Below are positions 5,687-63,250 of a stretch of 64,000 nt of DNA, piece by piece. Made by a program: the position numbers and the translations under genes. Below the pieces are notes generated by a model. The model was given only the letters and a program-made list of their open reading frames with translations, did no database searches and was not told the DNA's origin. The stretch is from Candidatus Omnitrophota bacterium (GTDB taxonomy: Bacteria; Omnitrophota; Gorgyraeia; Gorgyraeales; Gorgyraeaceae), in NCBI GenBank assembly GCA_018814825.1, contig JAHIYJ010000090.1, forward strand, positions 1,321 to 65,320, read 5' to 3'. Every line of letters starts with the position of its first letter. Positions within the stretch are counted from its first letter, which is position 1.

Positions 5687-5746
5687 AAAATGAGTGCTTG
5701 GTTATCAGCAGCTGATAGCTGATAACTGATAGCTGAAAGCTGATAT
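5687..5746. repeat. Heptamer-periodic inverted repeat, (AGCTGAT)n with a GTTATCAGC/GCTGATAAC stem
   Basis: The sequence reads gttatcagcagctgatagctgataactgatagctgaaagctgatat. The 7-nt register is visible by eye. Confidence 0.6.
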
Positions 5747-6505
5747 ATGGATGTTATAGGGATAATTCCGGCGAGATACGGCGCGACGCGATTTGAGGGC
5801 AAGCTTCTGGCTGACCTGTGCGGTAAGCCTGTTATACAGCACACATGGGAGAATGCCAAGAAGTCCAGATCAATAGAAGACCTTTTAATCGCTACTGACG
5901 ATAAGCGTATTTACAATACCGCTAAGGGCTTTGGCGCTAAAGCGGTATACACCTCAAAAGCTCACAAAAGCGGTTCAGACAGGCTGACAGAGATCGCCAG
6001 CCAGTTTGAGGCCAAAATCATCGTGAATATCCAGGCAGATGAGCCATTGCTGCACCCCTCGATGATCGACAATATAGTAGACCCTCTCCTTAGAGATAAG
6101 GATATTCAGATGGCAACTCTCTGTCATAAGATTGAATCAGAGCACGAGCTCTTTGACAGGAATACGGTAAAAGTCGTGCTCGACAGGAAGGGTTTCGCCC
6201 TGTATTTTTCCAGAGCGGCCATTCCTTATAAGCCGCGTTCTATCCATAACGGCAACAGGATCTCGAATTGTTATAAACATATCGGACTCTACGCTTATAC
6301 CAGGGATTTTCTTTTCACGTTCAAGAGCCTGCCTCAGTCAACGCTGGAGAAGATAGAGAAATTAGAGCAGTTAAGAGTGATAGAGAACGGATATAAGATA
6401 AAAGTGGTTGAGACAAAATACGATACGGTGGGCATAGATACTCCTGAGGACCTGGCCCGGGCGAGGGAATTGATACAGGGGTCAAAGCAGTTGAGTTTTT
6501 TGTAA
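5747..6505 (+). CDS. kdsB: 3-deoxy-manno-octulosonate cytidylyltransferase (CMP-Kdo synthetase)
   Basis: IIPARYGATRFEGKLLADLCGKPVIQHTWENA is a KdsB-type N-terminus. 252 aa. Confidence 0.85.
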   Translation: MDVIGIIPARYGATRFEGKLLADLCGKPVIQHTWENAKKSRSIEDLLIATDDKRIYNTAKGFGAKAVYTSKAHKSGSDRLTEIASQFEAKIIVNIQADEPLLHPSMIDNIVDPLLRDKDIQMATLCHKIESEHELFDRNTVKVVLDRKGFALYFSRAAIPYKPRSIHNGNRISNCYKHIGLYAYTRDFLFTFKSLPQSTLEKIEKLEQLRVIENGYKIKVVETKYDTVGIDTPEDLARARELIQGSKQLSFL

Positions 6506-6534
6506 ATAGAAGTTGGTTTATGGGTATGGAAACT

Positions 6535-6605
6535 GGTTAAGAAATTAGAAGTAGAAGCTGGGTACTGGATATCAGGCTTCCAGTACCCACTTCCAGCTTC
6601 CTAGC
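6535..6605. repeat. Hairpin repeat of the GAAGCTG/CAGCTTC heptamer family (GGGTACTGG-loop-CCAGTACCC core stem)
   Basis: The sequence reads gaagctgggtactggatatcaggcttccagtacccacttccagcttc, lying between kdsB and pyrG. Confidence 0.55.
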
Positions 6606-6649
6606 AAGCCTCCACAACAATAAACCAGCTTCAACAGCCTAAATTTAAT

Positions 6650-8272
6650 ATGCCAAAGTATATATTCATAACAGGGGGCGTTGTTTCCAGCCTCGGGAAA
6701 GGTATTACCTCAGCCTCTATAGGCAAGCTTCTTGAATCCAAGGGCCTGAAGATAACAATACAGAAATGCGACCCTTACATAAACGTGGATCCCGGGACCA
6801 TGAATCCATTCCAGCACGGCGAGGTATATGTGACAGACGACGGAGCCGAAACAGACCTGGACCTTGGCCATTACGAGCGTTTTACAAGTGTGCCTCTCGG
6901 CAAGGATAACAATATCACTACCGGGAAAATCTATGATTCAGTTATTACAAAGGAACGCAGGGGTGATTATCTCGGAGCGACCATCCAGGTCGTCCCTCAT
7001 ATAACGAACGAGATAATATCTAACATAAAAAAGGTATCGAGCGGCAAGGACGTTGATATTGTCATCTGCGAGATAGGGGGGACAGTAGGTGACATAGAAA
7101 GCCTTCCTTTTCTTGAGGCCATCAGGCAGTTCAAGCAGTACGTGGGCAGGGGCAATGCCATAAATATCCACCTGACCCTGGTCCCATATATCAAGGCCGC
7201 AGAGGAAGTAAAGACCAAGCCCACGCAGCACAGTGTCGGCAAGATGAGGGAAATAGGTATCCAGCCGGATATATTGATCTGCAGGACCGAGAAACCCATT
7301 TCAAAGAAGGTAAAACAGAAAATAGCCCTTTTCTGCAACGTGGATGAAGACGCTGTAATAGATACGCCTGACGTGAAAGATATATATGAGATCCCTTTAT
7401 TGTTCCAACAACAAGGACTGGGGAAGATTATATTAAGGCTGCTGGAATTGAGATATAGAGAAGGTGACCTGAGCGCGTGGCGCGATAAAGTGGTTAAAAG
7501 GGCGCTTCACCCGACAAAAAGGGTCACGATAGCCGTTGTCGGAAAATATATAGAGCTGAATGACGCGTATAAATCTATCTATGAGTCCTTAAAGCACGCA
7601 GGCGTGGAAAATGACGCTAAAGTGGACATCAGGAAGATAGATTCGGAGGAGATAGAGGAAAAAAACGTGGATAACTTTCTTAATGACGCGGACGGGATCC
7701 TTGTCCCGGGGGGATTCGGCTCACGCGGCATAGAGGGTAAGATCAGGGCAATAAAATTTGCCAGGGAAAATAATATACCCTTTTTTGGCATATGTCTAGG
7801 TATGCAGTGCGCTGTCGTAGAGTTTGCCAGAAACGTATGCAAGTTAAAAAAGGCCCATTCAACGGAATTTGACAAATCAACGCCCTTCCCTGTAATAAGC
7901 CTGCTCGAGGAACAAAAAAGAGTGAAAGATATGGGGGGCACCATGAGATTAGGCGCCTATCAATGCAGGCTGAAAAAGGCGACGCGCACGTACGAGGCGT
8001 ATGGTAAAGAGAGGATCTCAGAAAGACACAGGCACAGGTATGAGTTTGACACGCACTATAAAAGGAGCATGGAAAAAGAAGGCCTTGTCATATCAGGGAC
8101 TTCTCCTGATCTTAGGCTGATGGAGGTAGTCGAGATAAAAAACCATCCATGGTTTGTGGCGTGCCAGTTTCATCCTGAGTTTAAATCAAAACCTGATAAC
8201 TGCCATCCGCTGTTCAGGGATTTTGTAAAAGCGTCTCTGGCCCACGGGAAAAAAGGCAAGACAAGCAAATGA
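6650..8272 (+). CDS. pyrG: CTP synthase
   Basis: [64 protein letters not shown], plus a C-terminal GATase domain (GICLGMQ). 540 aa. Confidence 0.95.
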
Positions 8273-9105
8273 CGAAAGAGATAAAGATAGGGAATATAAA
8301 GATAGGCGGCAATAATACCATTACCTTAATCGCCGGGCCATGTGTTATCGAGAGCGAGCGGCACGCCATGCGTCACGCGGAAGCTATCAAAAAGATATGC
8401 GGTAAACAAGAGATATCTTTTATATACAAATCCAGCTATGACAAGGCGAACCGCTCAAATGTCAAATCTTACAGGGGGCCTGGCATAGAAAAGGGCCTTA
8501 AAATACTGGCGAAGGTAAAGAAAGAAACAGGTGTTCCTGTATTAAGCGATGTACACTGCAGGGCGGAGCTTTCAGAAGCGTCTGGTGTCCTTGATATCAT
8601 CCAGATACCGGCTTTTTTATGCAGGCAGACGGATTTCATAGTAGAAGCGGCAAAGACAAAAAAGGTCATCAATGTGAAAAAGGGCCAGTTCCTTGCGCCA
8701 TGGGACATAAAAAACATAGTAGAAAAAATAGAGGTCAGCGGCAATAAAAATATCATCATTACGGAACGCGGCACGATGTTCGGGTACAATAATTTAGTCA
8801 GTGATTTCAGGTCCCTGGATATAATGAGAGAGTTTGGCTATCCTGTGGTTTATGACGCGACTCACAGTGTCCAGCTGCCGGGGGGCAGAGGTTCTTCTTC
8901 GGGCGGAGATAGGAAGTTTGTGGCGTCTCTTTCCCGCGCGGCAGTAGCTGTCGGGTGCGATGGATTATTTTTGGAAGTACACGAAAACCCAGACAAAGCG
9001 CCATGCGATGGCCCGAATATGATTGATTTGAAGACGCTGGAAAAATTATTGAGTGAAGTCAAAGATATAAATCGGGTAATATTTCAAACCCGCATTGCAA
9101 TTTAA
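8269..9105 (+). CDS. kdsA: 2-dehydro-3-deoxyphosphooctonate aldolase (Kdo-8-P synthase)
   Basis: [46 protein letters not shown]. 278 aa. Confidence 0.9.
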
Positions 9106-9120
9106 TTGCAATGCGGGTTT
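9086..9120. repeat. Palindrome with 15-bp arms AAACCCGCATTGCAA and a 5-nt centre TTTAA, spanning the kdsA stop codon
   Basis: Read directly from the sequence. Identical arms recur at 59309..59343. Confidence 0.7.
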
Positions 9121-9130
9121 GAAAATAAGG

Positions 9131-10096
9131 ATGGATATGCTAAAACAACGCGCTAAACAGGTCCTTAAAATCGAGTCAGACTCGATAAAACGGCTAATAT
9201 CCAGGATAAACAAGGATTTTGAGAAGGCCGTTAACCTGATATTCGCCTCAAAAGGCAGGGTAGTTGTTACCGGCATGGGCAAGGCCGGTATTATCGGGGA
9301 AAAGATTTCCGCTACACTTGCATCCACTGGCACGCCGAGCCTGTGGATGCATTCAGCGGAGGCCATACACGGCGACCTGGGCCGGGTAAAAAAAGAAGAC
9401 CTGATAATAGCCATATCGAATAGCGGTGAAACAGAAGAAACCATAAGGCTTATCCCTCACATAAAGAAAATAGGAGCCAGGCTTATTGCCATAACAGGTA
9501 ATATGCGCTCCACTCTGGCGAAGAACAGCGACGCTGTTCTGGATGTCTCGATAAAAGAAGAGGCGTGTCCGTTAGGCCTTGCGCCTATGGCAAGCACTAC
9601 CACTATGCTCGCGATGGGCGACGCTCTTTGCGCGGCATTGATAGACAAGAGAGGTTTTAAAAAAAGTGATTTCGCCTTCCTCCATCCCGGCGGGAGCCTG
9701 GGCAAGCAATTGCTTCTTAAGGTGGAGGACATTATGAGAAAAGGCCCTTCAAACCCTATTGTAAAAGAGAATGTGAAAGTGAAAGACGTGCTGTTAAAGA
9801 TTACGACCGCGAGGGCCGGGAGCGCAACGGTGGTTGACAAAAAAGGCAGGTTGGCAGGTATATTCACGGACGGTGATTTGAGAAGGCATTTAGAGGAGGG
9901 GCTTGATCTTTCAAAGAAAAAAGTAAAAGACGTGATGACGAAAAAACCTAAGGCCATGAAAAAAGGAGCGCTTGCCGTTGAGGCGCTGAAGGTTTTGCAG
10001 GATTACAGGATTGACGAGATTCCGATAGTGGATGAGAAGGGCAGGGCAATAGGGCTGGTGGATGTGCAGGATCTGCTGAAAGCAGGGCTTATATGA
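9131..10096 (+). CDS. kdsD: Arabinose-5-phosphate isomerase (KdsD/KpsF; SIS domain plus tandem CBS domains)
   Basis: SIS motif VVVTGMGKAGIIGEKISATLASTGTP and a C-terminal CBS pair. The listed 9095 start lies inside the palindrome. ATG 9131/9137 after AGGA is the more plausible start. Confidence 0.85.
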   Translation: MDMLKQRAKQVLKIESDSIKRLISRINKDFEKAVNLIFASKGRVVVTGMGKAGIIGEKISATLASTGTPSLWMHSAEAIHGDLGRVKKEDLIIAISNSGETEETIRLIPHIKKIGARLIAITGNMRSTLAKNSDAVLDVSIKEEACPLGLAPMASTTTMLAMGDALCAALIDKRGFKKSDFAFLHPGGSLGKQLLLKVEDIMRKGPSNPIVKENVKVKDVLLKITTARAGSATVVDKKGRLAGIFTDGDLRRHLEEGLDLSKKKVKDVMTKKPKAMKKGALAVEALKVLQDYRIDEIPIVDEKGRAIGLVDVQDLLKAGLI

Positions 10097-10608
10097 TAAA
10101 AGAACGCGCTAAAAAAATCAAATTACTGATACTTGATGTAGACGGCGTCCTTACAGAAGGCCATATAATCTACGATAATTTCGGGGATGAGCTTAAATGT
10201 TTTAACGTCCAGGACGGGCTGGGCATGTTCCTTCTTAATAAGGCTGGCATAAAGTCCGTGATCATAACTGCTAAAAAAAGCAAGGCCGTAAAGCGCAGGG
10301 CCCATGACATGAGGGTCTCTGCGGTATATTCAGCCCACGATAAACTTAAAGTCTACCAGAAGGTTCTTAAGAGATTCAGGGTAAAGAATGAAGAAGTATG
10401 TTTTATGGGAGATGAGCTTTTGGACCTGCCATTGATAAAAAGGGCAGGGCTCGCTATAGCGCCGCCGAACGCGGCGGAAGAGGTGAAAAACACAGCCCAT
10501 TATGTTACCAAAGAACACGGTGGCAGAGGCGCGGTGCGCGAAGTAATAGAAATCATCCTGAAATCCCAGGGCCTTTGGGATAAGGTAATCGCGAGGTATA
10601 TGGTATGA
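10093..10608 (+). CDS. kdsC: 3-deoxy-D-manno-octulosonate 8-phosphate phosphatase (HAD family)
   Basis: LLILDVDGVLTEGHIIYDNFGDELKCFNVQDGLG..KSVIIT..LFMGDELLDLP. 171 aa. Confidence 0.85.
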   Translation: MIKERAKKIKLLILDVDGVLTEGHIIYDNFGDELKCFNVQDGLGMFLLNKAGIKSVIITAKKSKAVKRRAHDMRVSAVYSAHDKLKVYQKVLKRFRVKNEEVCFMGDELLDLPLIKRAGLAIAPPNAAEEVKNTAHYVTKEHGGRGAVREVIEIILKSQGLWDKVIARYMV

Positions 10609-11282
10609 CGCGGTTTTTCAGGTTTGTTATCGTAGGAAGCGCTATTTTTCCAGCGTTATTTTTTTGCCAGTGCGCCTTCGCGTTTGATGACGGCGACTGG
10701 CAATACTGGGATACAGAAAGCGCATCCGCAGAGCTCTCTCGTAAATGGAGGTTTGGCATTGAAGAGGAGTTTCGCCGGGGCGATGATATGAAAAATCCCT
10801 ACTATAACCATACCGATATAGAGGTTGTATATTCTGGGCTGGCAGACTGGTTTGACCTTGGATTGAATTACAGGCATATAAACGAGGAAAGAAGCGGGGG
10901 CTGGAAAACAGAATACAGGCCACATCTTAACGGCACTGTCAAATGGAAATGCCGCGGCTTTTCCTTAAGTAACCGCGGAAGGTTAGAATTTAGAGAGAGA
11001 GAGGATGCGGATGAGGCCTGGCAGTACAGGAATAAAATATCAGTTAAGCCGCCCATGTCGTTCACGAAACATCAGATCCAACCCTATATCGCGGATGAGA
11101 CATTTTTTGATTCTGATTCAAAAGAGCTCAATAGGAACAGGTTTTACTCAGGCTTTTCATTTCAAATATTCAAAAATATAAAAGCGGAACCATATTACCT
11201 GTGGCAACGCTCCAAATCGTCTTCCTCGGGTAAGTGGTCGGATTATAATATAATAGGGACAAAATGGAAGCTTTTGTTTTGA
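10605..11282 (+). CDS. Secreted, W/Y-rich hypothetical protein (possible outer-membrane protein)
   Basis: N-terminal signal peptide (FVIVGSAIFPALFFCQCAFA). No confident family assignment. Confidence 0.4.
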   Translation: MTRFFRFVIVGSAIFPALFFCQCAFAFDDGDWQYWDTESASAELSRKWRFGIEEEFRRGDDMKNPYYNHTDIEVVYSGLADWFDLGLNYRHINEERSGGWKTEYRPHLNGTVKWKCRGFSLSNRGRLEFREREDADEAWQYRNKISVKPPMSFTKHQIQPYIADETFFDSDSKELNRNRFYSGFSFQIFKNIKAEPYYLWQRSKSSSSGKWSDYNIIGTKWKLLF

Positions 11283-11311
11283 TGAGTCAGGCAGGGATGT
11301 GTTGGGGTTGA

Positions 11312-12469
11312 TTGAAAATGACAAAACAACAGAGAATAAATGAATTAGAGCAGGAGCTTTTAAAGGCACATCAGGACATTGAAAAGCTGGTCAGGATTAA
11401 ATCCGATTTCGTGTCCATAATCTCTCATGAATTACGCACGCCTCTAACGTCTATCAAGGAGAGCGTTTCCCTGGTTTTAGACGGGGTGACAGGCCCTCTA
11501 AATGAAAACCAGAGTGAGTTCCTGGCTATCGCCAAAAATAATATAGGCAGGCTCACCAGGCTTATAACAGACATACTTGATTTTTCAAAGCTGGAATCCG
11601 ACAGGATTAGTATGCGTAAAAGAAAAGTCAATATAAACGAGCTGATAAAAGAAGCCTATTCCATGGCCGGGACTGGCGCCGGTAAGAAGAAGCTGAGTTT
11701 TGATCTGGAGCTCTCTGACGCCTTGGAAGACGTATGGCTTGACCCCGAAAGGCTCGGCCAGGCCTTAAATCATCTCATATCTAATGCTATAAAGTTTAAC
11801 AGAGAAAATGGCAGGATAAAGATCATTAGCTCAATGGAAAATATTGACGGCCGCGGTGCGGTAAAAGTTGTCATAGAAGACACAGGCATAGGCATCATGG
11901 AGAACGATATCCCCAATCTTTTTAATCATTTCAGCCCGCTGGACACAAGCATGACGCGAGCCTCGAACGGTGTAGGGCTTGGCCTCGCCATAAGTAAGCA
12001 GATAATAGAGCTGCATGGCGGGGATATATGGGTGGAGTCAAAGAAAGACGTGGGGAGCAACTTTATTTTTACCCTGCCTGTATATAAGGAGGGCGAAGAG
12101 TTTGAATTTATCCTTGAAGAGTCTATAGAGCGCTCAGAGCAAAATGATATGAATTTAGCCCTTATCCTATTTGGGATTGATTCCCATAAAGATTCCAAAA
12201 AAGAGACATTAGACCGGATAGAGAAGATTATAAGCTCAAGCGTTAGAGGCCCTGAGGATAAAACCGTGAGATTTAAAAAAGGGGAGTTTGTGGCTGTTAT
12301 GGCCGGGACTGACAGGACAGGCGCGATGAAGATAATCAACAGGCTCAGAGGCAAGCTGGAAACGCCTGTATGTTTTGGGCTGGCCATCTATCCTGATGAA
12401 TCTCTGGATAAAGATAAGCTGGTAAAAAAGGCTGAAAAGGATTTAAAGACAGGTAAACATTTCATATAA
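11312..12469 (+). CDS. Cytoplasmic sensor histidine kinase (HisKA + HATPase_c) with a C-terminal degenerate GGDEF-like domain
   Basis: H-box SHELRTPLTSI. G-boxes DTGIGI and GVGLGLAIS. In the C-terminal segment the GG(D/E)EF position reads RFKKGEF and the upstream DxD reads GID, so cyclase activity is unlikely. Confidence 0.65.
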   Translation: MKMTKQQRINELEQELLKAHQDIEKLVRIKSDFVSIISHELRTPLTSIKESVSLVLDGVTGPLNENQSEFLAIAKNNIGRLTRLITDILDFSKLESDRISMRKRKVNINELIKEAYSMAGTGAGKKKLSFDLELSDALEDVWLDPERLGQALNHLISNAIKFNRENGRIKIISSMENIDGRGAVKVVIEDTGIGIMENDIPNLFNHFSPLDTSMTRASNGVGLGLAISKQIIELHGGDIWVESKKDVGSNFIFTLPVYKEGEEFEFILEESIERSEQNDMNLALILFGIDSHKDSKKETLDRIEKIISSSVRGPEDKTVRFKKGEFVAVMAGTDRTGAMKIINRLRGKLETPVCFGLAIYPDESLDKDKLVKKAEKDLKTGKHFI

Positions 12470-12481
12470 CGGGGGTGCGGG

Positions 12482-12847
12482 ATGGATAAGAAAAAGATAC
12501 TGGTGGTAGACGATGACCCTGATTTGCTTAGGATGCTGAAACTCAGGATGGAATCGGAAGGCTATGAGTTTTTGTCAGCTCAGGACGGAGAAGAGATGTT
12601 AAAGATAATGAAGGCTAAAAGGCCGGATGCCGTGCTTTTGGATATAATGCTTCCCAAGGTTGACGGGTATACTGCGTTACGCGAGATGAGAAAAGAAGAT
12701 TCCTTTAAAGATACACCTGTGATAGTTATGACCGCGAAAGAGCAAAAAAAAGTAGGAGATCTGTTTGCGCTCGAAAAAGTAGCATTTTTCGTGGAAAAAC
12801 CTTTTGATTCAAAAGACTTGTTAGAGAAAATAAAAGAGGTGTTATGA
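12482..12847 (+). CDS. Single-domain CheY-like response regulator (paralog 1 of 3)
   Basis: ILVVDDDPD..DAVLLDIMLPKVDGY..VIVMTAKE..EKPF. Confidence 0.8.
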   Translation: MDKKKILVVDDDPDLLRMLKLRMESEGYEFLSAQDGEEMLKIMKAKRPDAVLLDIMLPKVDGYTALREMRKEDSFKDTPVIVMTAKEQKKVGDLFALEKVAFFVEKPFDSKDLLEKIKEVL

Positions 12848-13215
12848 TGAACAGAAAAAGGATACTTATAGTGGATGATGAGGATGACCTGAGAAAGATG
12901 TTGAGGTTCAGGTTGGAGGCGGCGGGGTATGATATTGATGAAGCCGGCGATGGACAGGAAGGCCTTGATAAGGCGAGGTCTCACTGGCCGGATCTGATTC
13001 TGCTGGATCTTATGCTTCCCAAGATCGACGGTTACAAGGTATGCAGGATGCTCAAGTTTGATGAGAAGCATAAGCATAAACCTGTTATCATGTTCACTGC
13101 GCGCGCCCAGGAGAAAGACATGGAGCTCGGCAAAGAAATGGGGGCTGACGCGTATATAACCAAACCATTTGAGCCTAAGGTTCTTTTGGATAAGATAAAG
13201 GAATTATTAAAATAG
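12844..13215 (+). CDS. Single-domain CheY-like response regulator (paralog 2 of 3)
   Basis: ILIVDDEDD..DLILLDLMLPKIDGY..VIMFTAR..TKPF. The start overlaps the upstream stop. Confidence 0.8.
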   Translation: MMNRKRILIVDDEDDLRKMLRFRLEAAGYDIDEAGDGQEGLDKARSHWPDLILLDLMLPKIDGYKVCRMLKFDEKHKHKPVIMFTARAQEKDMELGKEMGADAYITKPFEPKVLLDKIKELLK

Positions 13216-13256
13216 CGTATAGCGGGCAGCGTTTAGCGGATAGGAAAAACTAAAAC

Positions 13257-13643: not shown

Positions 13644-13659
13644 GGAAAAAAAGGCTATT

Positions 13660-15354: not shown

Positions 15355-15420
15355 CCTTATCGTTTACCGTGTACCGTTTACCGCACGAGACGGTACACGG
15401 TAAACTGTAAGCGAAACACG
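15355..15420. repeat. Heptamer-periodic hairpin (CGTTTAC/CGTGTAC units; 15-bp stem TTTACCGTGTACCGT / ACGGTACACGGTAAA)
   Basis: The sequence reads cgtttaccgtgtaccgtttaccgcacgagacggtacacggtaaactgtaagcgaaacacgg, lying between pilB and pilC. Confidence 0.65.
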
Positions 15421-15431
15421 GAGGTTTTAAG

Positions 15432-16646: not shown

Positions 16647-16686
16647 TCTCGTATATCGTATGTAGTATGTCGTATATAGTATATCG
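16647..16686. repeat. Heptamer tandem repeat (TCGTATA/TCGTATG units), forward orientation
   Basis: The sequence reads tctcgtatatcgtatgtagtatgtcgtatatagtatatcg, immediately after the pilC stop. Confidence 0.65.
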
Positions 16687-16725
16687 TTTTTCATTGAACA
16701 CTGAATGCAAAAAAAGGGGGTGGTT

Positions 16726-17175
16726 ATGAGAAAAGGTTTTACACTAATTGAGCTATTGATAGTCATTGCGGTGATATCTATCCTGATCGGGATCGCTCTC
16801 CCGCGTTTTAAGGGGATGCAGGATGAAGGAAATATTGCCAAAGCAAAGGGAGAATTAAAAACGCTTCAAGTCGCAGTAGAGAGTTATTATATCCATAATA
16901 ATAATACCTATCCAGCCACAGGTTCTGCAGCGCTTGAGACAGCATTAGCCAGCGCCACCCCTAGCATCATAACTTCTGTGCCTACGGATCCTTTTCGTTC
17001 TACCGGGGCGGATTATGTATATGTAAGAGGTGGTACAAACGGCAAATACTATATTATTTATTCTGTGGGGCCGGGCGGCAATGGAAGCGCGTCTATATCG
17101 AGCAATGCAGTCAGCGAGACGAATGGCTCGAGCTGCATCTATGTCTCTAATATGGGGGAGGATGTACAGCCATAA
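16726..17175 (+). CDS. gspG: Major pseudopilin / type IV pilin, GspG-like (short MRKG leader, class III signal)
   Basis: MRKG|FTLIELLIVIAVISILIGIALP, then ..YP..LP/VPTDPF..YYIIYSVGPGGNG, which resembles the GspG C-terminal signature. The ATG at 16726 follows GGGGGTGG. The listed ORF starts earlier, at 16705. Confidence 0.65.
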   Translation: MRKGFTLIELLIVIAVISILIGIALPRFKGMQDEGNIAKAKGELKTLQVAVESYYIHNNNTYPATGSAALETALASATPSIITSVPTDPFRSTGADYVYVRGGTNGKYYIIYSVGPGGNGSASISSNAVSETNGSSCIYVSNMGEDVQP

Positions 17176-17210
17176 CTCGTATGTAGTATGTCGTACATAG
17201 CATATCGTAA
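17176..17210. repeat. Heptamer tandem repeat (forward type), left flank of the four-helix-bundle gene
   Basis: The sequence reads ctcgtatgtagtatgtcgtacatagcatatcgtaa. Confidence 0.6.
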
Positions 17211-17211
17211 T

Positions 17212-17574: not shown

Positions 17575-17963
17575 TGACATGCCTACGATATACGATATAC
17601 GATATACGATATACGAAATGTGGGTTCACTCTACTCGAGATCCTGATTACCATCATCATCCTCACAATAGGCGTGGTTACATTGACCAGCGCTTTTAGTT
17701 CAGGGCTCTTCGCCACTACCGATGTTGAGAATGTGGATCTGGCATTAAATATTGCGCAGGCAAAGATGGAGCAGATCAAGAATACAGCCTTTGCCAGTTT
17801 AGTTGACAGCGGGCCTACTGCTGATGCGAATTTCTCGAACTTTAACGTAACCGTAGATGTGGCCGAGGGCGATGATCCTATGCAGGTGGATGTTACAGTT
17901 AGTTGGAATGTTAAAGGCGGCTCGCCGAGCATTACGTTGACGACGCTGGTCGTTGATTACTGA
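17574..17963 (+). CDS. Minor pseudopilin, GspI/PilV-like; the predicted leader MTCLRYTIYDIRYTKCG is encoded by heptamer repeats
   Basis: The prepilin motif G|FTLLEILITIIILTIGVV is followed by ALNIAQAKMEQIKN. The only in-frame ATG upstream of the cleavage site is 17574, which overlaps the TAA of the previous gene as TAATG. Confidence 0.6.
   Translation: MTCLRYTIYDIRYTKCGFTLLEILITIIILTIGVVTLTSAFSSGLFATTDVENVDLALNIAQAKMEQIKNTAFASLVDSGPTADANFSNFNVTVDVAEGDDPMQVDVTVSWNVKGGSPSITLTTLVVDY
17583..17610. repeat. (CGATATA)n heptamer repeat, reverse orientation, inside the 5' coding end of the GspI-like gene
   Basis: The sequence reads cctacgatatacgatatacgatatacgaa. Confidence 0.65.
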
Positions 17964-17964
17964 T

Positions 17965-17985
17965 TATCGTATATAGTATATCGTA
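17965..17985. repeat. Heptamer repeat, forward type (TCGTATATAGTATATCG)
   Basis: Nearly the reverse complement of 18044..18060, with one mismatch. Confidence 0.6.
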
Positions 17986-17987
17986 AA

Positions 17988-18590
17988 ATGCAAAACCATA
18001 ATTCAAAACTAGGATTATTAAACCCCCAATTTTTACCCAAAAAGCGATATACGATATACGACATACGACATACGAAACAAGGTTTAACTCTCATTGAGCT
18101 AATGATAACAATCGCGATGTTCAGTATTCTGGCAGTAGTTACCGTATATATATTTCGAGCGGTTTTATTAAGCTGGTCAAGTCAGGAGACAAGGGCAGGG
18201 ATTGATATAGTCCTTGATAGAGGCATAGAAGAGATGGTGCGGGATTTAAGAGAGGCAAAAGAGATTCAATCCACTGGCGGTTATGACGAGATAAGATTTT
18301 CACAGGACCAGAGCACTTATTATATCTACTACCTTTATAATGCCAGAGATTCTTATGCTCCTCCGCCAGCCTTTGACCAGACTGTATACGAATTGAGGAA
18401 AGCGGTTTTAACAGGAGATATAAACGGAAGTTTTACGTATGGCTCAGGCCAGATTATAATAACCGATGTCCTTCCTCCTGCTGTTTCTGATTTGTCCTTG
18501 AGTGGTAATATAGTGGCTATTGACCTGAGTGTTGCCAGGGGCGATGAAGCGATTCGCTCGAGGACCGAAGTGATGCCGAGAAATCTTTGA
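17988..18590 (+). CDS. Minor pseudopilin, GspJ/PilW-like; long repeat-containing leader
   Basis: ..KKRYTIYDIRHTKQG|LTLIELMITIAMFSILAVV. The leader segment MQNHNSKLGLLNPQFLPKK is paralogous to the one in the next gene. Confidence 0.55.
   Translation: MQNHNSKLGLLNPQFLPKKRYTIYDIRHTKQGLTLIELMITIAMFSILAVVTVYIFRAVLLSWSSQETRAGIDIVLDRGIEEMVRDLREAKEIQSTGGYDEIRFSQDQSTYYIYYLYNARDSYAPPPAFDQTVYELRKAVLTGDINGSFTYGSGQIIITDVLPPAVSDLSLSGNIVAIDLSVARGDEAIRSRTEVMPRNL
18044..18078. repeat. (CGATATA/CGACATA)n heptamer repeat, reverse orientation, in-frame within the leader
   Basis: The sequence reads gcgatatacgatatacgacatacgacatacgaaac. Confidence 0.65.
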
Positions 18591-18629
18591 TTCGTATATA
18601 GCATATCGTATGTAGTATATTGTAAAATG
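18591..18629. repeat. Heptamer repeat, forward type
   Basis: The sequence reads ttcgtatatagcatatcgtatgtagtatattgtaaaatg. Confidence 0.6.
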
Positions 18630-19766
18630 ATAGACAAAAACTTAAAACCAGGATTTTTAAACAAATCTTTTTTACTACCAAACGATATACGATATACGAC
18701 ATACGATATACGAAACATGCGATATGCGAAACGAGGCTCTGTCCTGATCATGACTTTCATAATCATGGCAACTCTTATTTCTATAACTTTAGGCTTTTTA
18801 TTTATGATGTCTATACAGCTTAAAGGTTCGGGATATGATGTGGCGAGTTCAAAGGCCCTCTGGCTGGCTGAGGCGGGATTGCAGAAGGTTATTTATCAGA
18901 TCAAAAATAGCTCTAGTTTTAGAGATAATCCGACTACCATAACCGGAAATTTAGAAAATGGGGGTTATTCTGTGAGTGTGAGTAAAAATGGAATCACATA
19001 CTCGCTTAGCTCAACCGGGACAGAATCTGACATATCGAGAACAGTAGAGTTGGATGCAGTTGTCAGCTCAAATGGAGGTAGTTATCCCGATGGCGCCCCT
19101 GAGGCATTTAATTATGCCATGCATTCTTTTGGCAATCACATCAAGTTCAAAGATTCCGAGGGCACTATTAACGGAAATGTGGCCTCGGCCAACAGTGTGC
19201 AAAATTCAGGCGATCCAACGATAAACGGCATCGTAACCAGTAATTCCACCGTACCCACGCCTTTTACGGTTAATATGGCTGGTTATCAGTCTATAGCCGA
19301 TAACGTTGAGAGCAGTAATTATACTTTTACGGAAGGTAATACCTATGGCTCCTCTGGCAGCGAACAAATTTGGTATGTGCAGGGGAATGTTACGATAGAA
19401 GAAAATGTTGCTATCTATGGCACAGTTGTTGCTGAGCATAATGTCACTTTGGGCAGTGAAGATATAACAATCGATGCAGCATCTGGTTACCCCGCTCTCA
19501 TCGCAGGCAATAATATTAGCGGAGATGGATTAGAAAATAGTGCTATAAATGGGTTGATTGCCGCAGAAAACAATATTGATTTTGATAACATCAAAGATGC
19601 TACTATCAATGGGGCAATACTCGCCGGCAATAATATAACTATGAGAGATGGCGAAGATTTTACAGTTAATTACGACTCAGATATAACATCCAATCCGCCC
19701 CCATATTTTAGCGGCTATGGGGGCACTACTACTGTTACGACACAGGGTTGGAATGAGATTACATGA
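18627..19766 (+). CDS. Minor pseudopilin, GspK/PilX-like (PilX_N-like N-terminus, no Glu5), with a large N/G/T-rich C-terminal domain
   Basis: ..RYAKRGSVLIMTFIIMATLISITLGFLFMM..ALWLAEAGLQKV is PilX/GspK-type. An alternative internal start is ATG ~18717 (MRYAKRG..). Confidence 0.55.
   Translation: MIDKNLKPGFLNKSFLLPNDIRYTTYDIRNMRYAKRGSVLIMTFIIMATLISITLGFLFMMSIQLKGSGYDVASSKALWLAEAGLQKVIYQIKNSSSFRDNPTTITGNLENGGYSVSVSKNGITYSLSSTGTESDISRTVELDAVVSSNGGSYPDGAPEAFNYAMHSFGNHIKFKDSEGTINGNVASANSVQNSGDPTINGIVTSNSTVPTPFTVNMAGYQSIADNVESSNYTFTEGNTYGSSGSEQIWYVQGNVTIEENVAIYGTVVAEHNVTLGSEDITIDAASGYPALIAGNNISGDGLENSAINGLIAAENNIDFDNIKDATINGAILAGNNITMRDGEDFTVNYDSDITSNPPPYFSGYGGTTTVTTQGWNEIT
18683..18733. repeat. 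(CGATATA)n heptamer repeat, reverse orientation, 7 units
   Basis: The units read cgatata|cgatata|cgacata|cgatata|cgaaaca|tgcgata|tgcgaaa. Confidence 0.65.
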
Positions 19767-19835
19767 TCGTTTACCGTTACGGTTAACGGTAAACAGCGAG
19801 GCGAAGCCGAGCGGGTAAACGGTAAACGCAACAAG
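19767..19835. repeat. Hairpin repeats of the CGGTAAA/CGTTTAC heptamer family
   Basis: GTTTACCGTT-acggtt-AACGGTAAAC forms a perfect 10-bp stem. It is followed by gggtaaacggtaaacg. Confidence 0.6.
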
Positions 19836-19845
19836 GGATACATAA

Positions 19846-21438: not shown

Positions 21439-21448
21439 AGGGGCTGGG

Positions 21449-21958: not shown

Positions 21959-22058
21959 CAGTTATACATGTTTCGTGTACCGTTAACCGCTAACCGTTTA
22001 CCGTAACGGTTCACGATAAACGCTAAACGCTACACGGTAAACGGTAAACGGTAAAGCA
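21959..22058. repeat. About 100-nt array of heptamer repeats (CGTTAAC, CGCTAAC, CGTTTAC ... CGGTAAA x3) with inverted halves
   Basis: The right half reads cgataaa|cgctaaa|cgctaca|cggtaaa|cggtaaa|cggtaaa. It lies between pilO and pilP. Confidence 0.65.
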
Positions 22059-28593: not shown

Positions 28594-28678
28594 AATATAG
28601 TTGTATAACTAATTATTATTAAAATAGTTATAGCAAAATATACTTTATTAGTTAAAAAATCTTATAAAAAATGTAATT

Positions 28679-49588: not shown

Positions 49589-49590
49589 AG

Positions 49591-58481: not shown

Positions 58482-59326
58482 TAAAAGTGAAGGTCTTGTT
58501 TTTGATATCGGCCGTGATTATATGCCCTGTATGCATGGCGCAGGAGGATAATAAGGCGGCTGATCAGGAGATCAACGGTTTTTCTCTTGTGCAATATAGT
58601 GACTCCGGTGACAAGAAGTGGGAACTGAACGGACGATCAGCGGAACTGGAAGAAAATAGCGTAAAGATAGATGATGTCTCCATCTTAGCGTCAGGAGATG
58701 AAACGTTTCTTAAATTAAAGGCGAGAGAGGGTAATTTTGACAGGGATGAGAGCCTAGCGCGTCTTAAGAAAGACGTTGTCCTGAAAACAACAGACGGCAT
58801 TACTATCAAAACAGACGCGCTCAACTGGGATGCTGAGGCAAAGAACGTTTTTACGGAAGAACCTGTAAACATAAAAAGGGCGGATTTCGAGGTCAATGGC
58901 AGGGGCGCCACCTGTGATCTGGAGAATAAGACAGCTGAGGTAAAAAAAGACGTGACGGCAAACATTAACGCCGCTATGCCAGCGTATATGGCTGCTGTAA
59001 GCGGTGATAGACAGAAAACAGTAATAACCTGTGACGGCCCGCTCGAGATAAATTACAGCAAAAACAAAGCCTCTTTTCTAAATAACGTTAAAGTCGAAGA
59101 TTCTCAGGGTAATATACTGGCGGACAGGATAGATGTTTATTTCGATGCTGGCTCAAGACGCGTAAAGTGCGTTGTGGCGAGAGGCGGCGTGGAGATTATT
59201 AACGGAGGAAATGTTACTTACAGTGAAAAGGCCATATATCTTGTTGATGAGGGCCGGGTGATTTTGCCAAAAAGGCCCAAATTAGTAATCCAAAGCGAAC
59301 CAAATCTCAAACCCGCATTGCAATAG
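58478..59326 (+). CDS. lptA: Periplasmic LPS-transport protein of the LptA/LptC (OstA-like) family
   Basis: Signal peptide (MIKVKVLFLISAVIICPVCMA). The OstA-like beta-jellyroll repeats have the ..TGN..L pattern, and the gene sits immediately upstream of lptB. At 283 aa it is longer than a typical LptA and may be an LptC-LptA fusion. ATG 58478 overlaps the upstream stop. The listed 58436 start is inside the preceding gene. Confidence 0.6.
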   Translation: MIKVKVLFLISAVIICPVCMAQEDNKAADQEINGFSLVQYSDSGDKKWELNGRSAELEENSVKIDDVSILASGDETFLKLKAREGNFDRDESLARLKKDVVLKTTDGITIKTDALNWDAEAKNVFTEEPVNIKRADFEVNGRGATCDLENKTAEVKKDVTANINAAMPAYMAAVSGDRQKTVITCDGPLEINYSKNKASFLNNVKVEDSQGNILADRIDVYFDAGSRRVKCVVARGGVEIINGGNVTYSEKAIYLVDEGRVILPKRPKLVIQSEPNLKPALQ

Positions 59327-59343
59327 ATTTGCAATGCGGGTTT
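59309..59343. repeat. Second copy of the AAACCCGCATTGCAA 15-bp-arm palindrome (centre TAGAT), spanning the lptA stop codon
   Basis: Identical arms to 9086..9120. Both copies sit at junctions within LPS operons. Confidence 0.7.
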
Positions 59344-59358
59344 GATGAGGATAAAGAC

Positions 59359-60093
59359 ATGATAGACAATATTCATTTGTTGACTATAGAAAACCTCAGG
59401 AAGGCCTATGACGGCAAGACAGTCGTGGATGGCGTAAACATGAAGATCAAGAGAGGAGAGGTCGTGGGGCTGCTCGGGCCTAATGGCGCTGGGAAGACTA
59501 CCACGTTTTATATGGTGGTAGGTATGCTCAGGCCTGATGACGGAAGGATAATATTTGACGGTAATGATATAACCAAGCTGCCCATGCATATGCGTTCGCG
59601 AAACGGAATAGGCTATCTGTCTCAGGAACCTTCCGTATTCAGGAAGCTTACGGTCGAGGAAAATATAATGGCTATACTGGAGACCCTGGATCTACCGCGG
59701 TCTGTCAGGAAGAAAAGGCTGGAAGAGTTACTGAACGAATTAGACATAGCCCGACTTGCCGAGAAAAAGGCGTATATGCTTTCAGGAGGTGAGCGAAGGC
59801 GCCTGGAAATAACAAGGGCTCTCGTGACGAACCCTTTGTTTATACTGCTTGATGAGCCTTTCAGCGGCATAGACCCTATCGCGGTTTCTGACGCCCAGGA
59901 GATAATATCCGACCTGAAAAGAAAAGGCCTTGGCATTCTTCTTACCGACCACAACGTTAGAGAAACACTTGAAATAACGGACTATTCGTATATAATGGCA
60001 GAGGGAAGAATACTTATATCAGGCAATGCCGAGGAATTGACAAAAGATCCAAAGGCGCGCGAGATTTATCTGGGCGAGAAGTTTAGGATGTAA
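59359..60093 (+). CDS. lptB: LPS export ABC transporter ATP-binding protein
   Basis: Walker A GPNGAGKTT. Signature LSGGERRRLEI. 244 aa. ATG 59359 follows GAGGA. The listed 59329 start lies inside the palindrome. Confidence 0.85.
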   Translation: MIDNIHLLTIENLRKAYDGKTVVDGVNMKIKRGEVVGLLGPNGAGKTTTFYMVVGMLRPDDGRIIFDGNDITKLPMHMRSRNGIGYLSQEPSVFRKLTVEENIMAILETLDLPRSVRKKRLEELLNELDIARLAEKKAYMLSGGERRRLEITRALVTNPLFILLDEPFSGIDPIAVSDAQEIISDLKRKGLGILLTDHNVRETLEITDYSYIMAEGRILISGNAEELTKDPKAREIYLGEKFRM

Positions 60094-60101
60094 GTGAGGC
60101 C

Positions 60102-60136
60102 ATAAGTTACGTCAATCTTTGATTGACGTAACTTAT
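60102..60136. repeat. Perfect 16-bp-arm palindrome ATAAGTTACGTCAATC-ttt-GATTGACGTAACTTAT, 9 nt after the lptB stop
   Basis: Read directly. It probably acts as a terminator or stability hairpin. No U-tract follows. Confidence 0.6.
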
Positions 60137-60312
60137 TCGGCCGAACTTATCCTTGACATTTTCTGGTGCTTGAAATTGTTTTATATGGTAAGCATACCAG
60201 AAGATGTCAAGGATGAACGCAGCGCAAGGCGCTGCAGCTACAACTTCACACTTTTTTGTGTGTCACGGATGTGTGAAGTAATTGCTTTGCTCGCAATGAC
60301 AGGTGGTGTATA

Positions 60313-61977: not shown

Positions 61978-61983
61978 CCGCTT

Positions 61984-62020
61984 AACTTGACGAAAGTTAC
62001 AATGTAACTTTCGTCAAGTT
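61984..62020. repeat. Perfect 17-bp-arm palindrome AACTTGACGAAAGTTAC-aat-GTAACTTTCGTCAAGTT, placed right before the SD of the aminotransferase gene
   Basis: Second member of the family seen at 2879..2915. The two copies differ by two compensatory base-pair changes. Confidence 0.65.
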
Positions 62021-62037
62021 AAGGTTTAAGGAGAGTT

Positions 62038-63174
62038 ATGAAAAACTATTTACTTACACCAGGGCCGACTCCTGTGCCTCCCGAAGCTCTGGAGTCGATG
62101 GCAAGGCCGATAATACACCACAGGACGCCGCAGTTTCAGGAGATCTTGAAGGAAGTGGAAGACAACCTGAAATATGTATTCCAGACCACAAACCCGGTTC
62201 TTATATTTTCTTCAAGCGGTACAGGCGCAATGGAAGGCGCGGTTACCAGCCTCCTTTCCCCTGGAGATAAGGCCATAGTGGTAAGGGGCGGAAAATTCGG
62301 AGAAAGATGGGGGGAGCTTTGCGCGGCTTACGGCATAGAATTTATCCCCGTGGATGTGGAATGGGGCAAATCGGTTAGTCCGCAGGAGATAAAGAAAATT
62401 CTTGAAGCTGAAGGCTCAAGGCTGAAGGCTGTATATGTAACGCTATGCGAGACTTCAACAGGCGTTACGACTGATATAGAGGCTCTCGCGAAGATCACAA
62501 AAAGTTCCGAGGCTGTCTTGGTGGTTGATGCAATAAGCGCTCTGGGAGCCGTTCCTTTAAAGACTGATGAATGGGGGATTGACGTCGTGGTGTCAGGTTC
62601 GCAGAAGGGGCTGATGATCCCACCCGGGCTCGCGTTTGTAAGCCTGAGTGAAAAGGCCTGGAAACTGGCCGAGGAGTCCACATTGCCAAAGTATTATTTC
62701 AATTTCAAGGCATATAAAAAATCTATCGAGAAAAACGATACGCCTTACACACCGGCCGTGAATCTTATCATGGCCTTAAGAGAGGTTTTAAAACTGATAA
62801 GAAAAGAAGGCATTGATAACCTGATAAACCGCCACAGAAAAAACAGTAAGGCGGTACGGGACGCCGTTAAGGCTCTTGGCCTTGAGCTATTCGCTCCTCA
62901 GGCGTATTCAGAGGCGGTTACCGCGGTCATGGTACCAGAAGGTGTTGACGGAGGCAAACTTGTAAAGACCATGCGTGATAAGTACGGTGTGGCGATCGCC
63001 GGCGGCCAGTCACAGCTAAAAGGGAAAATATTCAGGATAGCCACCATGGGTTACATAACAGAGGATGATTTGAAAAAGGGTTTTGAGGTCCTGGAGATAG
63101 TCCTTGCGGAGCTGGGATATAAATTCGAGAAGAGCGCAGGAGTTAAAGCGCTGGAAAGAGGATTAGCAAGTTAG
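62038..63174 (+). CDS. Class V PLP-dependent aminotransferase (AGXT/SerC-like); possibly the phosphoserine aminotransferase, given the adjacent serA
   Basis: MKNYLLTPGPTPVP.. 378 aa. It is contiguous with a D-3-phosphoglycerate dehydrogenase gene. Confidence 0.65.
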   Translation: MKNYLLTPGPTPVPPEALESMARPIIHHRTPQFQEILKEVEDNLKYVFQTTNPVLIFSSSGTGAMEGAVTSLLSPGDKAIVVRGGKFGERWGELCAAYGIEFIPVDVEWGKSVSPQEIKKILEAEGSRLKAVYVTLCETSTGVTTDIEALAKITKSSEAVLVVDAISALGAVPLKTDEWGIDVVVSGSQKGLMIPPGLAFVSLSEKAWKLAEESTLPKYYFNFKAYKKSIEKNDTPYTPAVNLIMALREVLKLIRKEGIDNLINRHRKNSKAVRDAVKALGLELFAPQAYSEAVTAVMVPEGVDGGKLVKTMRDKYGVAIAGGQSQLKGKIFRIATMGYITEDDLKKGFEVLEIVLAELGYKFEKSAGVKALERGLAS

Positions 63175-63180
63175 AATTAG

Positions 63181-63250
63181 TGAGCTTTCAGCCTTCAGCC
63201 ATCAGCCTTCAGCAGCTGACAGCTGAAAACTGGAAGCTGATGGCTAACAT
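63181..63250. repeat. Heptamer-periodic inverted repeat (YTTCAGC)x4 then (AGCTGAN)x4, forming a hairpin
   Basis: The units read tttcagc|cttcagc|catcagc|cttcagc|agctgac|agctgaa|aactgga|agctgat. Confidence 0.65.

Follow-up and report, generated by a model that had tools for sequence, protein, structure and literature searches.

Heptamer-periodic inverted arrays at gene junctions of an Omnitrophota genome as possible arms of small insertions resembling rRNA intervening sequences

Introduction

What are the arrays of 7-nucleotide (nt) units, arranged in inverted halves, that recur at gene junctions of a Candidatus Omnitrophota bacterium? The stretch that raises this question, hereafter the window, is 64,000 nt long (contig JAHIYJ010000090.1 of assembly GCA_018814825.1, positions 1,321 to 65,320). 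The original prediction had listed at least 13 intergenic array sites and offered three options for them: REP-like mobile miniature elements, transcription attenuators or protein-binding arrays. Here, we assign a probability of about 0.5 to the reading that the arrays are the arms of small palindromic insertions, similar to the intervening sequences (IVSs) of rRNA, in transcribed operon spacers of an Omnitrophota genome. The original prediction had overlooked a PF05635 gene (17212-17574) between two of the arrays, as well as a TGAAGGC array at 62403 in a coding sequence. This PF05635 gene is the key to the identity of one array family.

Results

Arrays and hairpins in the window

The observation of heptamer arrays is confirmed. 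Period-7 arrays were located by Tandem Repeats Finder at 5710, 15357, 16649, 17584, 17965, 18045, 18592/18682, 19814, 21979/22005, 62403 and 63183. A separate scan returned 6-7 arrays at period 7 and 0-1 at each other period from 4 to 15; the sole enriched tandem period in the window is 7. Moreover, each of the 33 gene junctions that are 20 nt or longer was compared with 200 dinucleotide shuffles. The period-7 signal had p<=0.005 in nine of them (5687-5746, 15355-15431, 16647-16725, 17575-17624, 17964-18083, 18591-18738, 21959-22058 and 63175-63263, plus pairs inside these) and p ~0.015-0.025 at three junctions (17176-17211, 19767-19845 and 61978-62037). The signal was absent from all junctions between 22.5 and 61.9 kb, which agrees with the claim that arrays are missing from the second filament system.

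An arm consists of 3-6 degenerate 7-nt units in a row. With head-to-tail 7-nt units in at least three copies, beyond chance length, the window arrays have the basic build of long simple-sequence repeats (LSSRs). Left arms are complementary to their right partners, and hairpin predictions gave z-scores between -2.5 and -5.7, which bears out both the inverted symmetry and the ability of the two halves to form stems. Contiguous 7-nt units in inverted halves also set the arrays apart from CRISPR, which has 24-48-nt direct repeats with unique spacers, as had been stated. The number of sites did not stand: arrays exist at the places listed, but some of the 13 are arms of one element, and the elements number about nine. 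One listed site, 6535-6605 in the kdsB-pyrG gap, holds a strong yet imperfect hairpin (6548..6603, GAAGCTGGGTACTGGA ... TCCAGTACCCACTTCCAGCTTC, z=-3.5) whose 7-nt periodicity is weak and short of significance (p=0.14).

Three unit families occur in the window, namely a GTAT/ATAC-core family (four sites), a CGGTAAA-type family (three sites) and an AGCTGAN-type family (two sites). All elements described below are given on the + strand, which also carries all of the ~66 window genes, and the GC skew is strong and uniformly positive. Given this co-orientation, transcription-linked and replication-linked accounts of element orientation are confounded within the window.

A PF05635 cassette and its cargo-less relatives

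The dense cluster of arrays lies in a type IV pilus operon, comprising response regulators, pilB, pilC, a pilin, a small gene, three pseudopilins, pilMN and pilO. In this operon, arrays with a GTAT/ATAC core ('CGATATA') form the inverted ends of a cassette whose cargo is a PF05635 gene; two copies without cargo and one solo arm are present too. The left arm of the cassette (17170..17210) runs from the pilin stop codon to 1 nt before the ATG of the cargo gene (PF05635/TIGR02436, 17212..17574), whose own stop codon overlaps the ATG of pseudopilin A. The right arm (17584..17623) reads (TACGATA)4.7 and lies in the sole open frame of the pseudopilin A leader (MTCLRYTIYDIRYTKCG followed by FTLLEIL). 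The cargo protein is an Avd-like four-helix bundle, '23S rRNA intervening-sequence protein', and its nearest solved structure is 2GSC, XCC0516 of Xanthomonas campestris (E=5e-27).

In the minimum free energy (MFE) fold of a 481-nt stretch, the arms 17170-17210 and 17584-17623 were predicted to pair at 34 of 41 nt across 374 nt, with a duplex of -36 kcal/mol; a separate arm comparison gave 78% complementarity over 40 nt. The arms of the IVS cassette in a related genome (L003; L numbers designate loci of other genomes) pair likewise in the MFE fold.

Two further elements carry arms like those of the cassette and no cargo. Element B (17965..18078) has its left arm at 17965-17985, its right arm at 18044-18078 and a 58-nt loop holding an ATG at 17988, whereas the relatives' genes abut at the same junction. 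Element C (18591..18733, z=-5.7) has its left arm at 18591-18629, its right arm at 18682-18733 and a loop of 52-58 nt related to that of B; there, the relatives' genes overlap. The distance between partner arms is 374 nt for 17176/17583 and 58 nt for both 17965/18044 and 18591/18683, and an ATG stands directly 3' of the left arm in B, C and the IVS cassette. When the two loops were compared by BLAST with all related loci compiled, they resembled each other only, and an alignment with the 5' end of the IVS gene was suggestive at most. B and C are read as cargo-less derivatives of the cassette. An HMM (hidden Markov model) search of the window found no additional PF05635 gene. The solo arm (16647..16686), a left-type array of CGTATAT/AGTATGT units immediately 3' of the pilC stop, pairs with distant right arms in the predicted fold of the whole region.

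The arrays stand at gene junctions, as stated earlier, but they are not strictly intergenic, since the right arms at 17584 and 18044 lie in the only available frames of two pseudopilin leaders: in pseudopilins A and B, the only open frames traverse the right arms (ending in RYTIYDIRYTKCG, then FTLLEIL). The public gene call for pseudopilin B (L001; window 18102, 17574) begins at an internal Met within the conserved LTLIELMIT segment, and start-codon prediction for pilin-like genes evidently goes astray because their leaders contain heptamers.

The three CGGTAAA-family elements lie at junctions of pilus genes too. At the pilB-pilC junction (15356..15411, z=-5.4), TTTACCG units make up the left arm (15356-15377) and CGGTAAA units the right arm (15390-15411), with 91% complementarity between the arms. 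The element between pseudopilin C and pilM (19767..19835, p=0.015) contains a small hairpin (19768-19794), a nested GC-rich mini-hairpin and two GGTAAAC units (19814-19828). The third (21979..22055; left array 21979-22011, right array 22013-22055) sits between pilO and the next gene, whose start codon follows 3 nt further on. GC-rich mini-hairpins (e.g., GCGAGGCGAAGCCGAGC) nested in heptamer hairpins were seen at 19795-19813 of the window and around the AGCTGAN centres of L169 and L165; small dispersed repeats that they resemble reportedly lie within cyanobacterial heptamer arrays.

Orthologous pilus operons in related genomes

The closest comparison is a contig of GCA_018824945.1, which differs from the window by 22 single-nucleotide polymorphisms per 21.7 kb and by zero indels. 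More distant pilus operons were compared through PilC, whose named homologues belong to Candidatus Omnitrophota / Ca. Orphnella. L002 (PilC 81% identical) has no arrays and no small gene, and its genes abut or overlap. L003/L004 (79%) carry arrays of ACGAATC/TTCGTNG units at the same junctions, with the same IVS gene in the same position. L005/L006 (71%) contain CGAATCA/TCGTCGT and AGCTGAT/CTATCAG arrays, and still other unit sequences occur in L127, L128 and L129 (64-69%), where the L128 'complete genome' locus consists of N-stitched fragments and serves as an anecdote only. No period other than 7 was enriched in any related operon, and the arrays lie at junctions in all related loci as they do in the window.

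Within one operon the unit sequence is homogeneous, between genomes it differs, and left and right arms change jointly; some junctions carry a different unit family in other genomes. The pilB-pilC junction is filled in the window, while the two genes overlap in relatives (TAATG). Compact relatives without a spacer mean that the elements count as insertions, and arrays of varied units across relatives mean that the class is lineage-wide in Omnitrophota. The label 'genome-specific' given to the arrays is therefore abandoned, the more so as one family also occurs in metagenome-assembled genomes (MAGs) labelled as other phyla. As to the suggested check for presence or absence between strains, elements are missing at orthologous junctions of close relatives. 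Unit number was constant in all three near-identical pairs (window/L001, L003/L004 and L005/L006), which speaks against phase variation. No convincing target-site duplication was found when filled and empty junctions were compared.

Arrays also enter coding sequences, always in multiples of 21 nt. PilB of L003 has an in-frame +21-nt array (L003:6806-6840) that adds 7 amino acids. The major pilin leader of L003 is translated from an array (MAKRITNHESRITNNG followed by FTLIEL), preceded by a good Shine-Dalgarno sequence, and (CTATCAG)4 in the pseudopilin C leader of L005 is an in-place triplication of the native CTATCAGC of L003 and L002. In L004, the position of the in-frame PilB array is taken up exactly by an N-run assembly gap (L004:2905-3004). 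An LptC-like gene contains a 70-nt patch that is wholly different between L004:11687-11773 and L003:15525-15611, strains that are otherwise 99.7% identical; the patch holds a CGAACNA array in one strain and a GNNACAA-type array in the other.

PF05635 genes and complementary arms beyond the window

Does the association of PF05635 with heptamer arms extend to other genomes? A metagenome scan with two PF05635 proteins returned 80 loci at 63-75% identity, nearly all with a left array 5' and a complementary right array 3' of the gene (~70 loci so flanked). Left-array units include CGTATAT, AGTATAT, CGTACAT, AGTATCG, CGTATTG and others. Arm complementarity was 5.6/7 within a locus and 4.5/7 across loci (permutation p<0.0002). 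The cassettes are co-directional with their neighbours (56:3 upstream, 54:2 downstream), and one lies between two tRNA genes. The named near homologues are chiefly Omnitrophica and also include Atribacteria, Elusimicrobia and Proteobacteria MAGs; CGTATAT arrays are present on the Atribacteria contig (L212) as well. The PF05635 clade at 63-83% identity keeps the GTA core across phyla, while distant clades use other units.

In a protein search of plasmids, most PF05635 genes came from cyanobacteria (Nostoc, Calothrix, Anabaena and others), with Riemerella in addition. Among 18 named loci, a period-7 array adjoins the gene on one or both sides in 14, and the arms are clearly complementary in 9-10; array-flanked taxa are Nostoc, Calothrix, Geminocystis, Riemerella, Azospirillum and Xanthomonas. 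The left and right units are (AGTAGGG)7 and (TCCCTAC)5 in Nostoc edaphicum, (AGGGAAC)4 and (CTGTTCC)7 in Nostoc C052, (AGGGTGT) and (CTACACC) in Calothrix brevissima, (AAAAGGG) and (CTTTTCC) in Geminocystis, (GGTTTAA) and (TAAACCT) in Riemerella, and GGACAGA and TCTGTCT in Azospirillum. Host junctions on cyanobacterial plasmids (L281, L289 and L290) include cas6-cas4 (Pseudanabaena, Anabaena sp. 90) and cmr2-cmr3 (Picosynechococcus), and in Nostoc edaphicum the PF05635 gene lies antisense between nrdB and nrdA. As a control, the 49.7-kb Geminocystis plasmid contains no more than three period-7 arrays, and two of these lie close to the one PF05635 gene on it (35 and 4 nt away); in 50 kb of the Nostoc edaphicum plasmid, two of the seven arrays flank the PF05635 gene. 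In Xanthomonas campestris, the supplementary table of Rehm et al. 2015 (PMC4692102) places GGGAATC repeat no. 15 between bccP (XCC0517) and XCC0516, overlapping the XCC0516 start.

The AGCTGAN hairpin across genomes

Both AGCTGAN elements of the window are at junctions outside the pilus operon. The first (5701..5746) lies between the PfkB-kinase stop (5686) and the kdsB ATG (5747); its left arm TTATCAGC is merely 8 nt long, the central A is at 5710, and the right array of five GCTGANA units stops 1 nt short of the kdsB ATG. The second (63180..63249) occupies the serC-serA junction and reads GTGAGC-(YWTCAGC)4-A(63214)-(GCTGANA)4-GCTAACA; a Shine-Dalgarno sequence comes next, and then the ATG (63263). 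An in-frame (TGAAGGC)4 array within the serC-like coding sequence (62403..62431) could pair with the left arm of the element at 63186, to which it is complementary.

The seed WTCAGCAGCTGANAGCTGANA, the centre common to the window elements at 5704 and 63208 and to L005, was searched in one genome per species. It matched 64 loci, of which ~27 are Omnitrophota and ~11 are MAGs labelled Planctomycetia, at least one of the latter being syntenic with the window. Further loci lie on long Acidobacteriota contigs, in one Deltaproteobacteria MAG and in one Neomarinimicrobiota MAG; the remaining seed matches look like chance. Several single genomes have 2-4 copies on separate contigs, and near-identical copies on separate contigs of one genome (L153/L159 and L176/L179) share a 'CAGT CGTCAGC' signature. 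The whole-element consensus spans ~60 nt: [T]AGC-(YWTCAGC)4-A-(GCTGANA)4-5-GCTA.

In 23 of 32 strict elements, a long same-strand open reading frame (ORF) ends 0-10 nt 5' of the left arm, and in those the next ORF begins mostly 0-3 nt 3' of the right arm. The junctions so occupied belong to housekeeping operons, such as dnaK-dnaJ (in two distant genomes), mlaE-mlaF, nadA-aspartate dehydrogenase and cysE-cysS, in addition to PfkB kinase-kdsB and serC-serA in the window. At one locus, an AGCTGAN hairpin occupies the whole spacer separating two tRNA genes; since an IVS cassette also lies between two tRNA genes, the elements are not translation-specific. A missing Shine-Dalgarno sequence 3' of the hairpins was considered as a special trait and rejected, because about half of the window genes have none either.

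The five core positions of the unit form Watson-Crick pairs at 92-95%, position 6 at 21%, which is the random level, and position 7 is A-U in 47% and A.C in 41%. With the core paired and positions 6-7 mostly unpaired in this best-sampled family, the predicted stem is a chain of 5-bp helices with 1-2-nt internal loops. The central A lies on the mRNA-sense strand in ~26 elements and on the opposite strand in ~5. In 20 of the 26 sense-oriented elements, the mRNA-sense hairpin is weaker than the antisense one (predicted mean -33 vs -36.5 kcal/mol), and sense-strand stems carry C.A mismatches where the opposite strand would have G.U. This strand asymmetry was tried as a sign of RNA-level selection and set aside, as the outcome contradicted a simple model of a stable mRNA stem.

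The serC-serA junction is occupied in two other genomes too. L184 carries the element with flanks 73% identical to the window and a left arm ~90% identical, while L175 (76%) has a hairpin of another unit family, CAGAAGA/TCTGTCT. One SerC loop contains (TGAAGGC)4 in the window, a +21-nt ACGGAAT-type array (+7 amino acids) in L184 and no array in L175.

Other repeats in the window

Several further repeats were noted beside the heptamer arrays. Perfect 41-nt palindromes at 2877-2917 and 61982-62022, TTAACTTGAC(R)AAANTTACA-T-TGTAANTTT(Y)GTCAAGTTAA, lie directly 5' of the genes at 2924 and 62038, and a related palindrome (ATAAGTTACGTCAAT...ATTGACGTAACTTAT) is found at 60103-60135. Five matches to palindromes of this type were counted where 0.02 would be expected; operators, divergent promoters or a further family of dispersed repeats are possible identities. 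Another palindromic repeat, CAAACCCGCATTGCAAT-N3-ATTGCAATGCGGGTTTG, occurs at the gene junctions 9085-9121 and 59308-59344 (half-sites: 4 vs 0.02 expected). The 62 non-coding nt at 60091-60152 are 95% identical to L178:3478-3539 (Omnitrophota), with coding flanks far more diverged, and have no Rfam or tRNA match. Finally, an AT-rich 33-nt tandem repeat of 2.1 copies (28613-28679), unrelated to the heptamers, lies in a 230-nt gap 5' of the second filament system.

Discussion

Arm anatomy, behaviour as insertions, position in transcribed spacers, left-right covariation and a coupling to PF05635 are shown by the loci described above. By analogy with rRNA IVSs, the two arms would pair within the polycistronic RNA, and this pairing would loop out the intervening stretch or cargo and bring the flanking cistrons together. 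The long imperfect duplex would probably be cleaved by RNase III, a processing that would make the insertion tolerable in mRNA, tRNA and rRNA operons alike. The 7-nt period would most simply reflect growth by slippage of heptanucleotide units.

Several points weigh against this reading. We infer both RNA pairing and RNase III cleavage purely by analogy, and the CGGTAAA and AGCTGAN families are tied to the PF05635 cassette by analogy only; an HMM search covering 4 kb around the 64 AGCTGAN loci (0.47 Mb) found no PF05635 gene. Neither the Pfam table of the locus nor the HMM search contained a gene for a transposase or another mobilising enzyme, and target-site duplications were likewise not seen. 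The weaker stem on the mRNA-sense strand is unexpected under simple selection for a stable mRNA stem, and the positions that are conserved as non-pairing could point just as well to a factor that binds the 5-nt core in a sequence-specific way. Beside PF05635, the arrays of Pseudanabaena and Gemmatirosa are direct rather than inverted, and the Calothrix PCC 7716 locus has none. One cross-locus control of arm complementarity was inflated by unit families common to loci, and at least one array, the CTATCAG array of the L005 pseudopilin C leader, grew in place from native sequence.

Among known systems, the 23S rRNA IVSs of Leptospira, Coxiella, Salmonella, Campylobacter and CPR bacteria are likewise insertions bounded by inverted repeats, with a long stem tolerated in transcribed RNA and an optional ORF from the same family, PF05635; ORF-less versions exist. 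The rRNA IVSs share this protein domain, and RNase III cuts them with no religation afterwards. The present elements differ in that they lie in mRNA and tRNA operon spacers rather than in 23S/16S rRNA helices, and RNase III excision is something we infer here. To our knowledge, no account of rRNA IVSs describes stems with a heptamer periodicity.

As tandem 7-nt units that, in the window and related loci, are mostly intergenic and often near a start codon, at sites conserved among related species with variable length and sequence, the arrays also resemble the heptanucleotide LSSRs (cyanobacterial STRR, Xanthomonas GGGAATC and Beggiatoaceae TAACTGA). Heptanucleotides are the best-known class of long simple-sequence repeats in bacteria (PMC4679880), and in Xanthomonas 70-75 of about 185 arrays (70 of 186 GGGAATC arrays in X. 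campestris) form convergent pairs that could fold into stem-loops (Rehm et al. 2015, PMC4692102). To call a 7-bp periodicity unusual was thus an overstatement, and the inverted design had a precedent. Unlike these LSSRs, the window elements occur in Omnitrophota, have degenerate 5+2 arms rather than perfect repeats, run exactly from stop to start codon and share a whole-element consensus across genomes. The link to a cargo gene also sets them apart from published LSSR accounts, in which it went unremarked although a supplementary table holds one case.

Comparison with REP, REPIN and BIME sequences gives a mixed picture. These too are short imperfect palindromes, dispersed, extragenic, non-autonomous, located inside operons and grouped in genome-specific families, and roles in mRNA stability and translation have been proposed for them. 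However, REPs lack an internal 7-nt periodicity, whereas the window elements can enclose a gene that does not encode a transposase. As for the hallmarks of REPs, the termini read [T]AGC...GCTA in place of a 5' GTAG, and the Pfam table of the locus contains no transposase such as the cognate RAYT (Y1 transposase). As for those of MITEs (miniature transposable elements with inverted repeats), filled and empty junctions reveal no target-site duplication, and the sole cargo seen is PF05635, not a transposase. Of the three options offered at the outset, REP-like mobile miniature elements come nearest, given that relatives' junctions are empty, copies are multiple and the loci differ across genomes. 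Membership in a known REP/MITE family holds only as far as dispersed multicopy palindromes go, without GTAG/RAYT, target-site duplication or derivation from an insertion sequence. Correia/NEMIS elements of Neisseria and ERIC elements of enterobacteria are miniature palindromic insertions co-transcribed with neighbouring genes as well, but their terminal inverted repeats are defined and come with a TA target duplication, they lack a substructure of tandem units, and their sequence is unrelated to the window elements. Correia stems are cut by RNase III.

Transcription attenuation found no support, as none of the hairpins has the pattern of an intrinsic terminator: 0/21 terminator-like sites in 5500-22300 coincide with a heptamer hairpin, and no T run follows any right arm. 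Rfam searches of the window and 17 related loci returned tRNAs only at the gathering score, and merely generic miRNA-hairpin matches far below threshold at E<=10. The open-access literature yielded nothing relevant on the unit sequences or on Omnitrophota repeats, and no account of a heptamer class in Omnitrophota, of an AGCTGAN stop-to-start hairpin, of unit-family replacement at one junction or of systematic heptamer flanking of PF05635 genes. The occurrence in Omnitrophota, the hairpin shared across genomes and the link to PF05635 thus appear to be new, while inverted heptamer arrays are already known from Xanthomonas and cyanobacteria.

Which other explanations could account for these data? 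The elements could be selfish at the DNA level (REPIN/MITE-like), their hairpins forming in single-stranded DNA on the lagging-strand template and being copied by a trans-acting enzyme whose gene lies elsewhere in the genome; the elements would then play no part in RNA. Presence or absence at orthologous junctions, near-identical copies on separate contigs of one genome (L153/L159 and L176/L179) and the spread of a single family over several phyla are consistent with this, as is the fact that the mRNA-sense stem is the weaker one. Moreover, since the window genes are all co-oriented and the GC skew is strong, the 26:5 orientation bias could follow replication and not transcription. However, the Pfam table of the locus lists neither a transposase nor a RAYT-like gene, target-site duplications were not found, the serC-serA element is ~90% conserved versus 73% for its coding flanks, and the dnaK-dnaJ junction is occupied in two distant genomes. 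The 5-nt core is kept while adjacent positions drift, which argues for a constraint beyond mobility. Overall, we regard a purely selfish origin as unlikely, and we hold the same doubt about its corollary that the stop-start placement merely reflects tolerated insertion sites in a compact genome.

Alternatively, host regulatory hairpins could set intra-operon expression (e.g., of major vs minor pilins), by sequestering the next start codon until the upstream cistron has been translated or by shielding the upstream mRNA from 3' exonucleases in the manner of REP elements. The stop-hairpin-start geometry, with a start 0-3 nt past the right arm and usually no Shine-Dalgarno sequence, would fit such a role, and so would the ATG right after the left arm in B, C and the IVS cassette and the conserved occupancy of serC-serA and dnaK-dnaJ. 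Likewise, Beggiatoaceae TAACTGA arrays end mostly 1 nt before start codons (MacGregor 2015, PMC4679880). Regulation is nevertheless improbable as the general explanation, given that the same elements lie between tRNA genes, close relatives lack them, arrays are found within coding sequences too, and a Shine-Dalgarno sequence is present in only about half of all window genes.

Neutral slippage on heptanucleotide seeds would make the arrays functionless and immobile by-products rather than elements. Replication slippage was proposed for heptamer LSSRs by Mrazek et al. 2007, according to the summary given in PMC4679880, which also reports a general over-representation of heptamers. The in-place triplication of CTATCAGC that gave (CTATCAG)4 in L005 and the 21-nt multiples in coding sequence (L003 pilB, L184 serC) point the same way. 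A scan of viral contigs with the pattern (ACGANNN)4ACGA, with >120 matches listed, fits such an over-representation but was uninformative beyond this, and the loci concerned (L007-L126) were excluded from the analysis. Yet slippage does not yield complementary partner arrays. Element size is near constant (4-5 plus 4-5 units), and whole-element signatures are common to different loci and genomes. Adjacent units differ at the variable positions, hence there was no recent homogenisation, left and right arms covary locus by locus, and length is invariant between near-identical strains. We therefore give slippage as the sole cause a low probability.

A protein that reads the 5-nt core at 7-nt spacing could also explain why the core is conserved and the spacer free in both arms, with stems being secondary and the GTAT family possibly bound by the PF05635 protein. 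Avd binds nucleic acid in diversity-generating retroelements, and the PF05635 protein is Avd-like. The GTA core kept across phyla in the 63-83% identity clade, with other units in distant clades, would suit such recognition. AGCTGAN and CGGTAAA elements, however, have no adjoining PF05635 gene, and the two variable nt and the unit sequence vary widely inside the clade, so that binding sites of this kind seem very improbable. Phase variation of minor pilins by 7-nt gain or loss is hardly credible: perfect arrays do lie in pilin-like leader frames of three genomes, and a unit length of 7 nt is not divisible by 3, but unit numbers are equal in three near-identical strain pairs, arrays are mostly degenerate, and the same class occurs at housekeeping and tRNA junctions.

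Returning to IVS-like insertions as the preferred explanation, the arrays have a practical consequence for annotation, as they break assemblies (the N-gap in L004 pilB) and mislead gene callers at pilin leaders. Heptanucleotide repeats (STRR, GGGAATC, TAACTGA) have been catalogued since 1990 with no accepted function. Because repeats and PF05635 genes are coupled across phyla, with complementary arms round the gene and cargo-less stop/start versions placed with base-level precision, both become approachable experimentally in cultured Nostoc, Riemerella and Xanthomonas.

More tentatively, we hypothesize that PF05635 genes and heptamer arrays might form one widespread two-part system, in which autonomous cassettes and cargo-less miniatures would occupy mRNA, tRNA and rRNA operon spacers and the Avd-like protein would act on the stems. 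If true, such a system would range from Omnitrophota to cyanobacteria, Bacteroidota and Xanthomonas, and the Avd-like protein would bind, protect, generate or spread the stems, in a relation resembling that of RAYT to REP. It would then account both for the classic STRR/heptamer repeats and for what an orphan family of proteins does.

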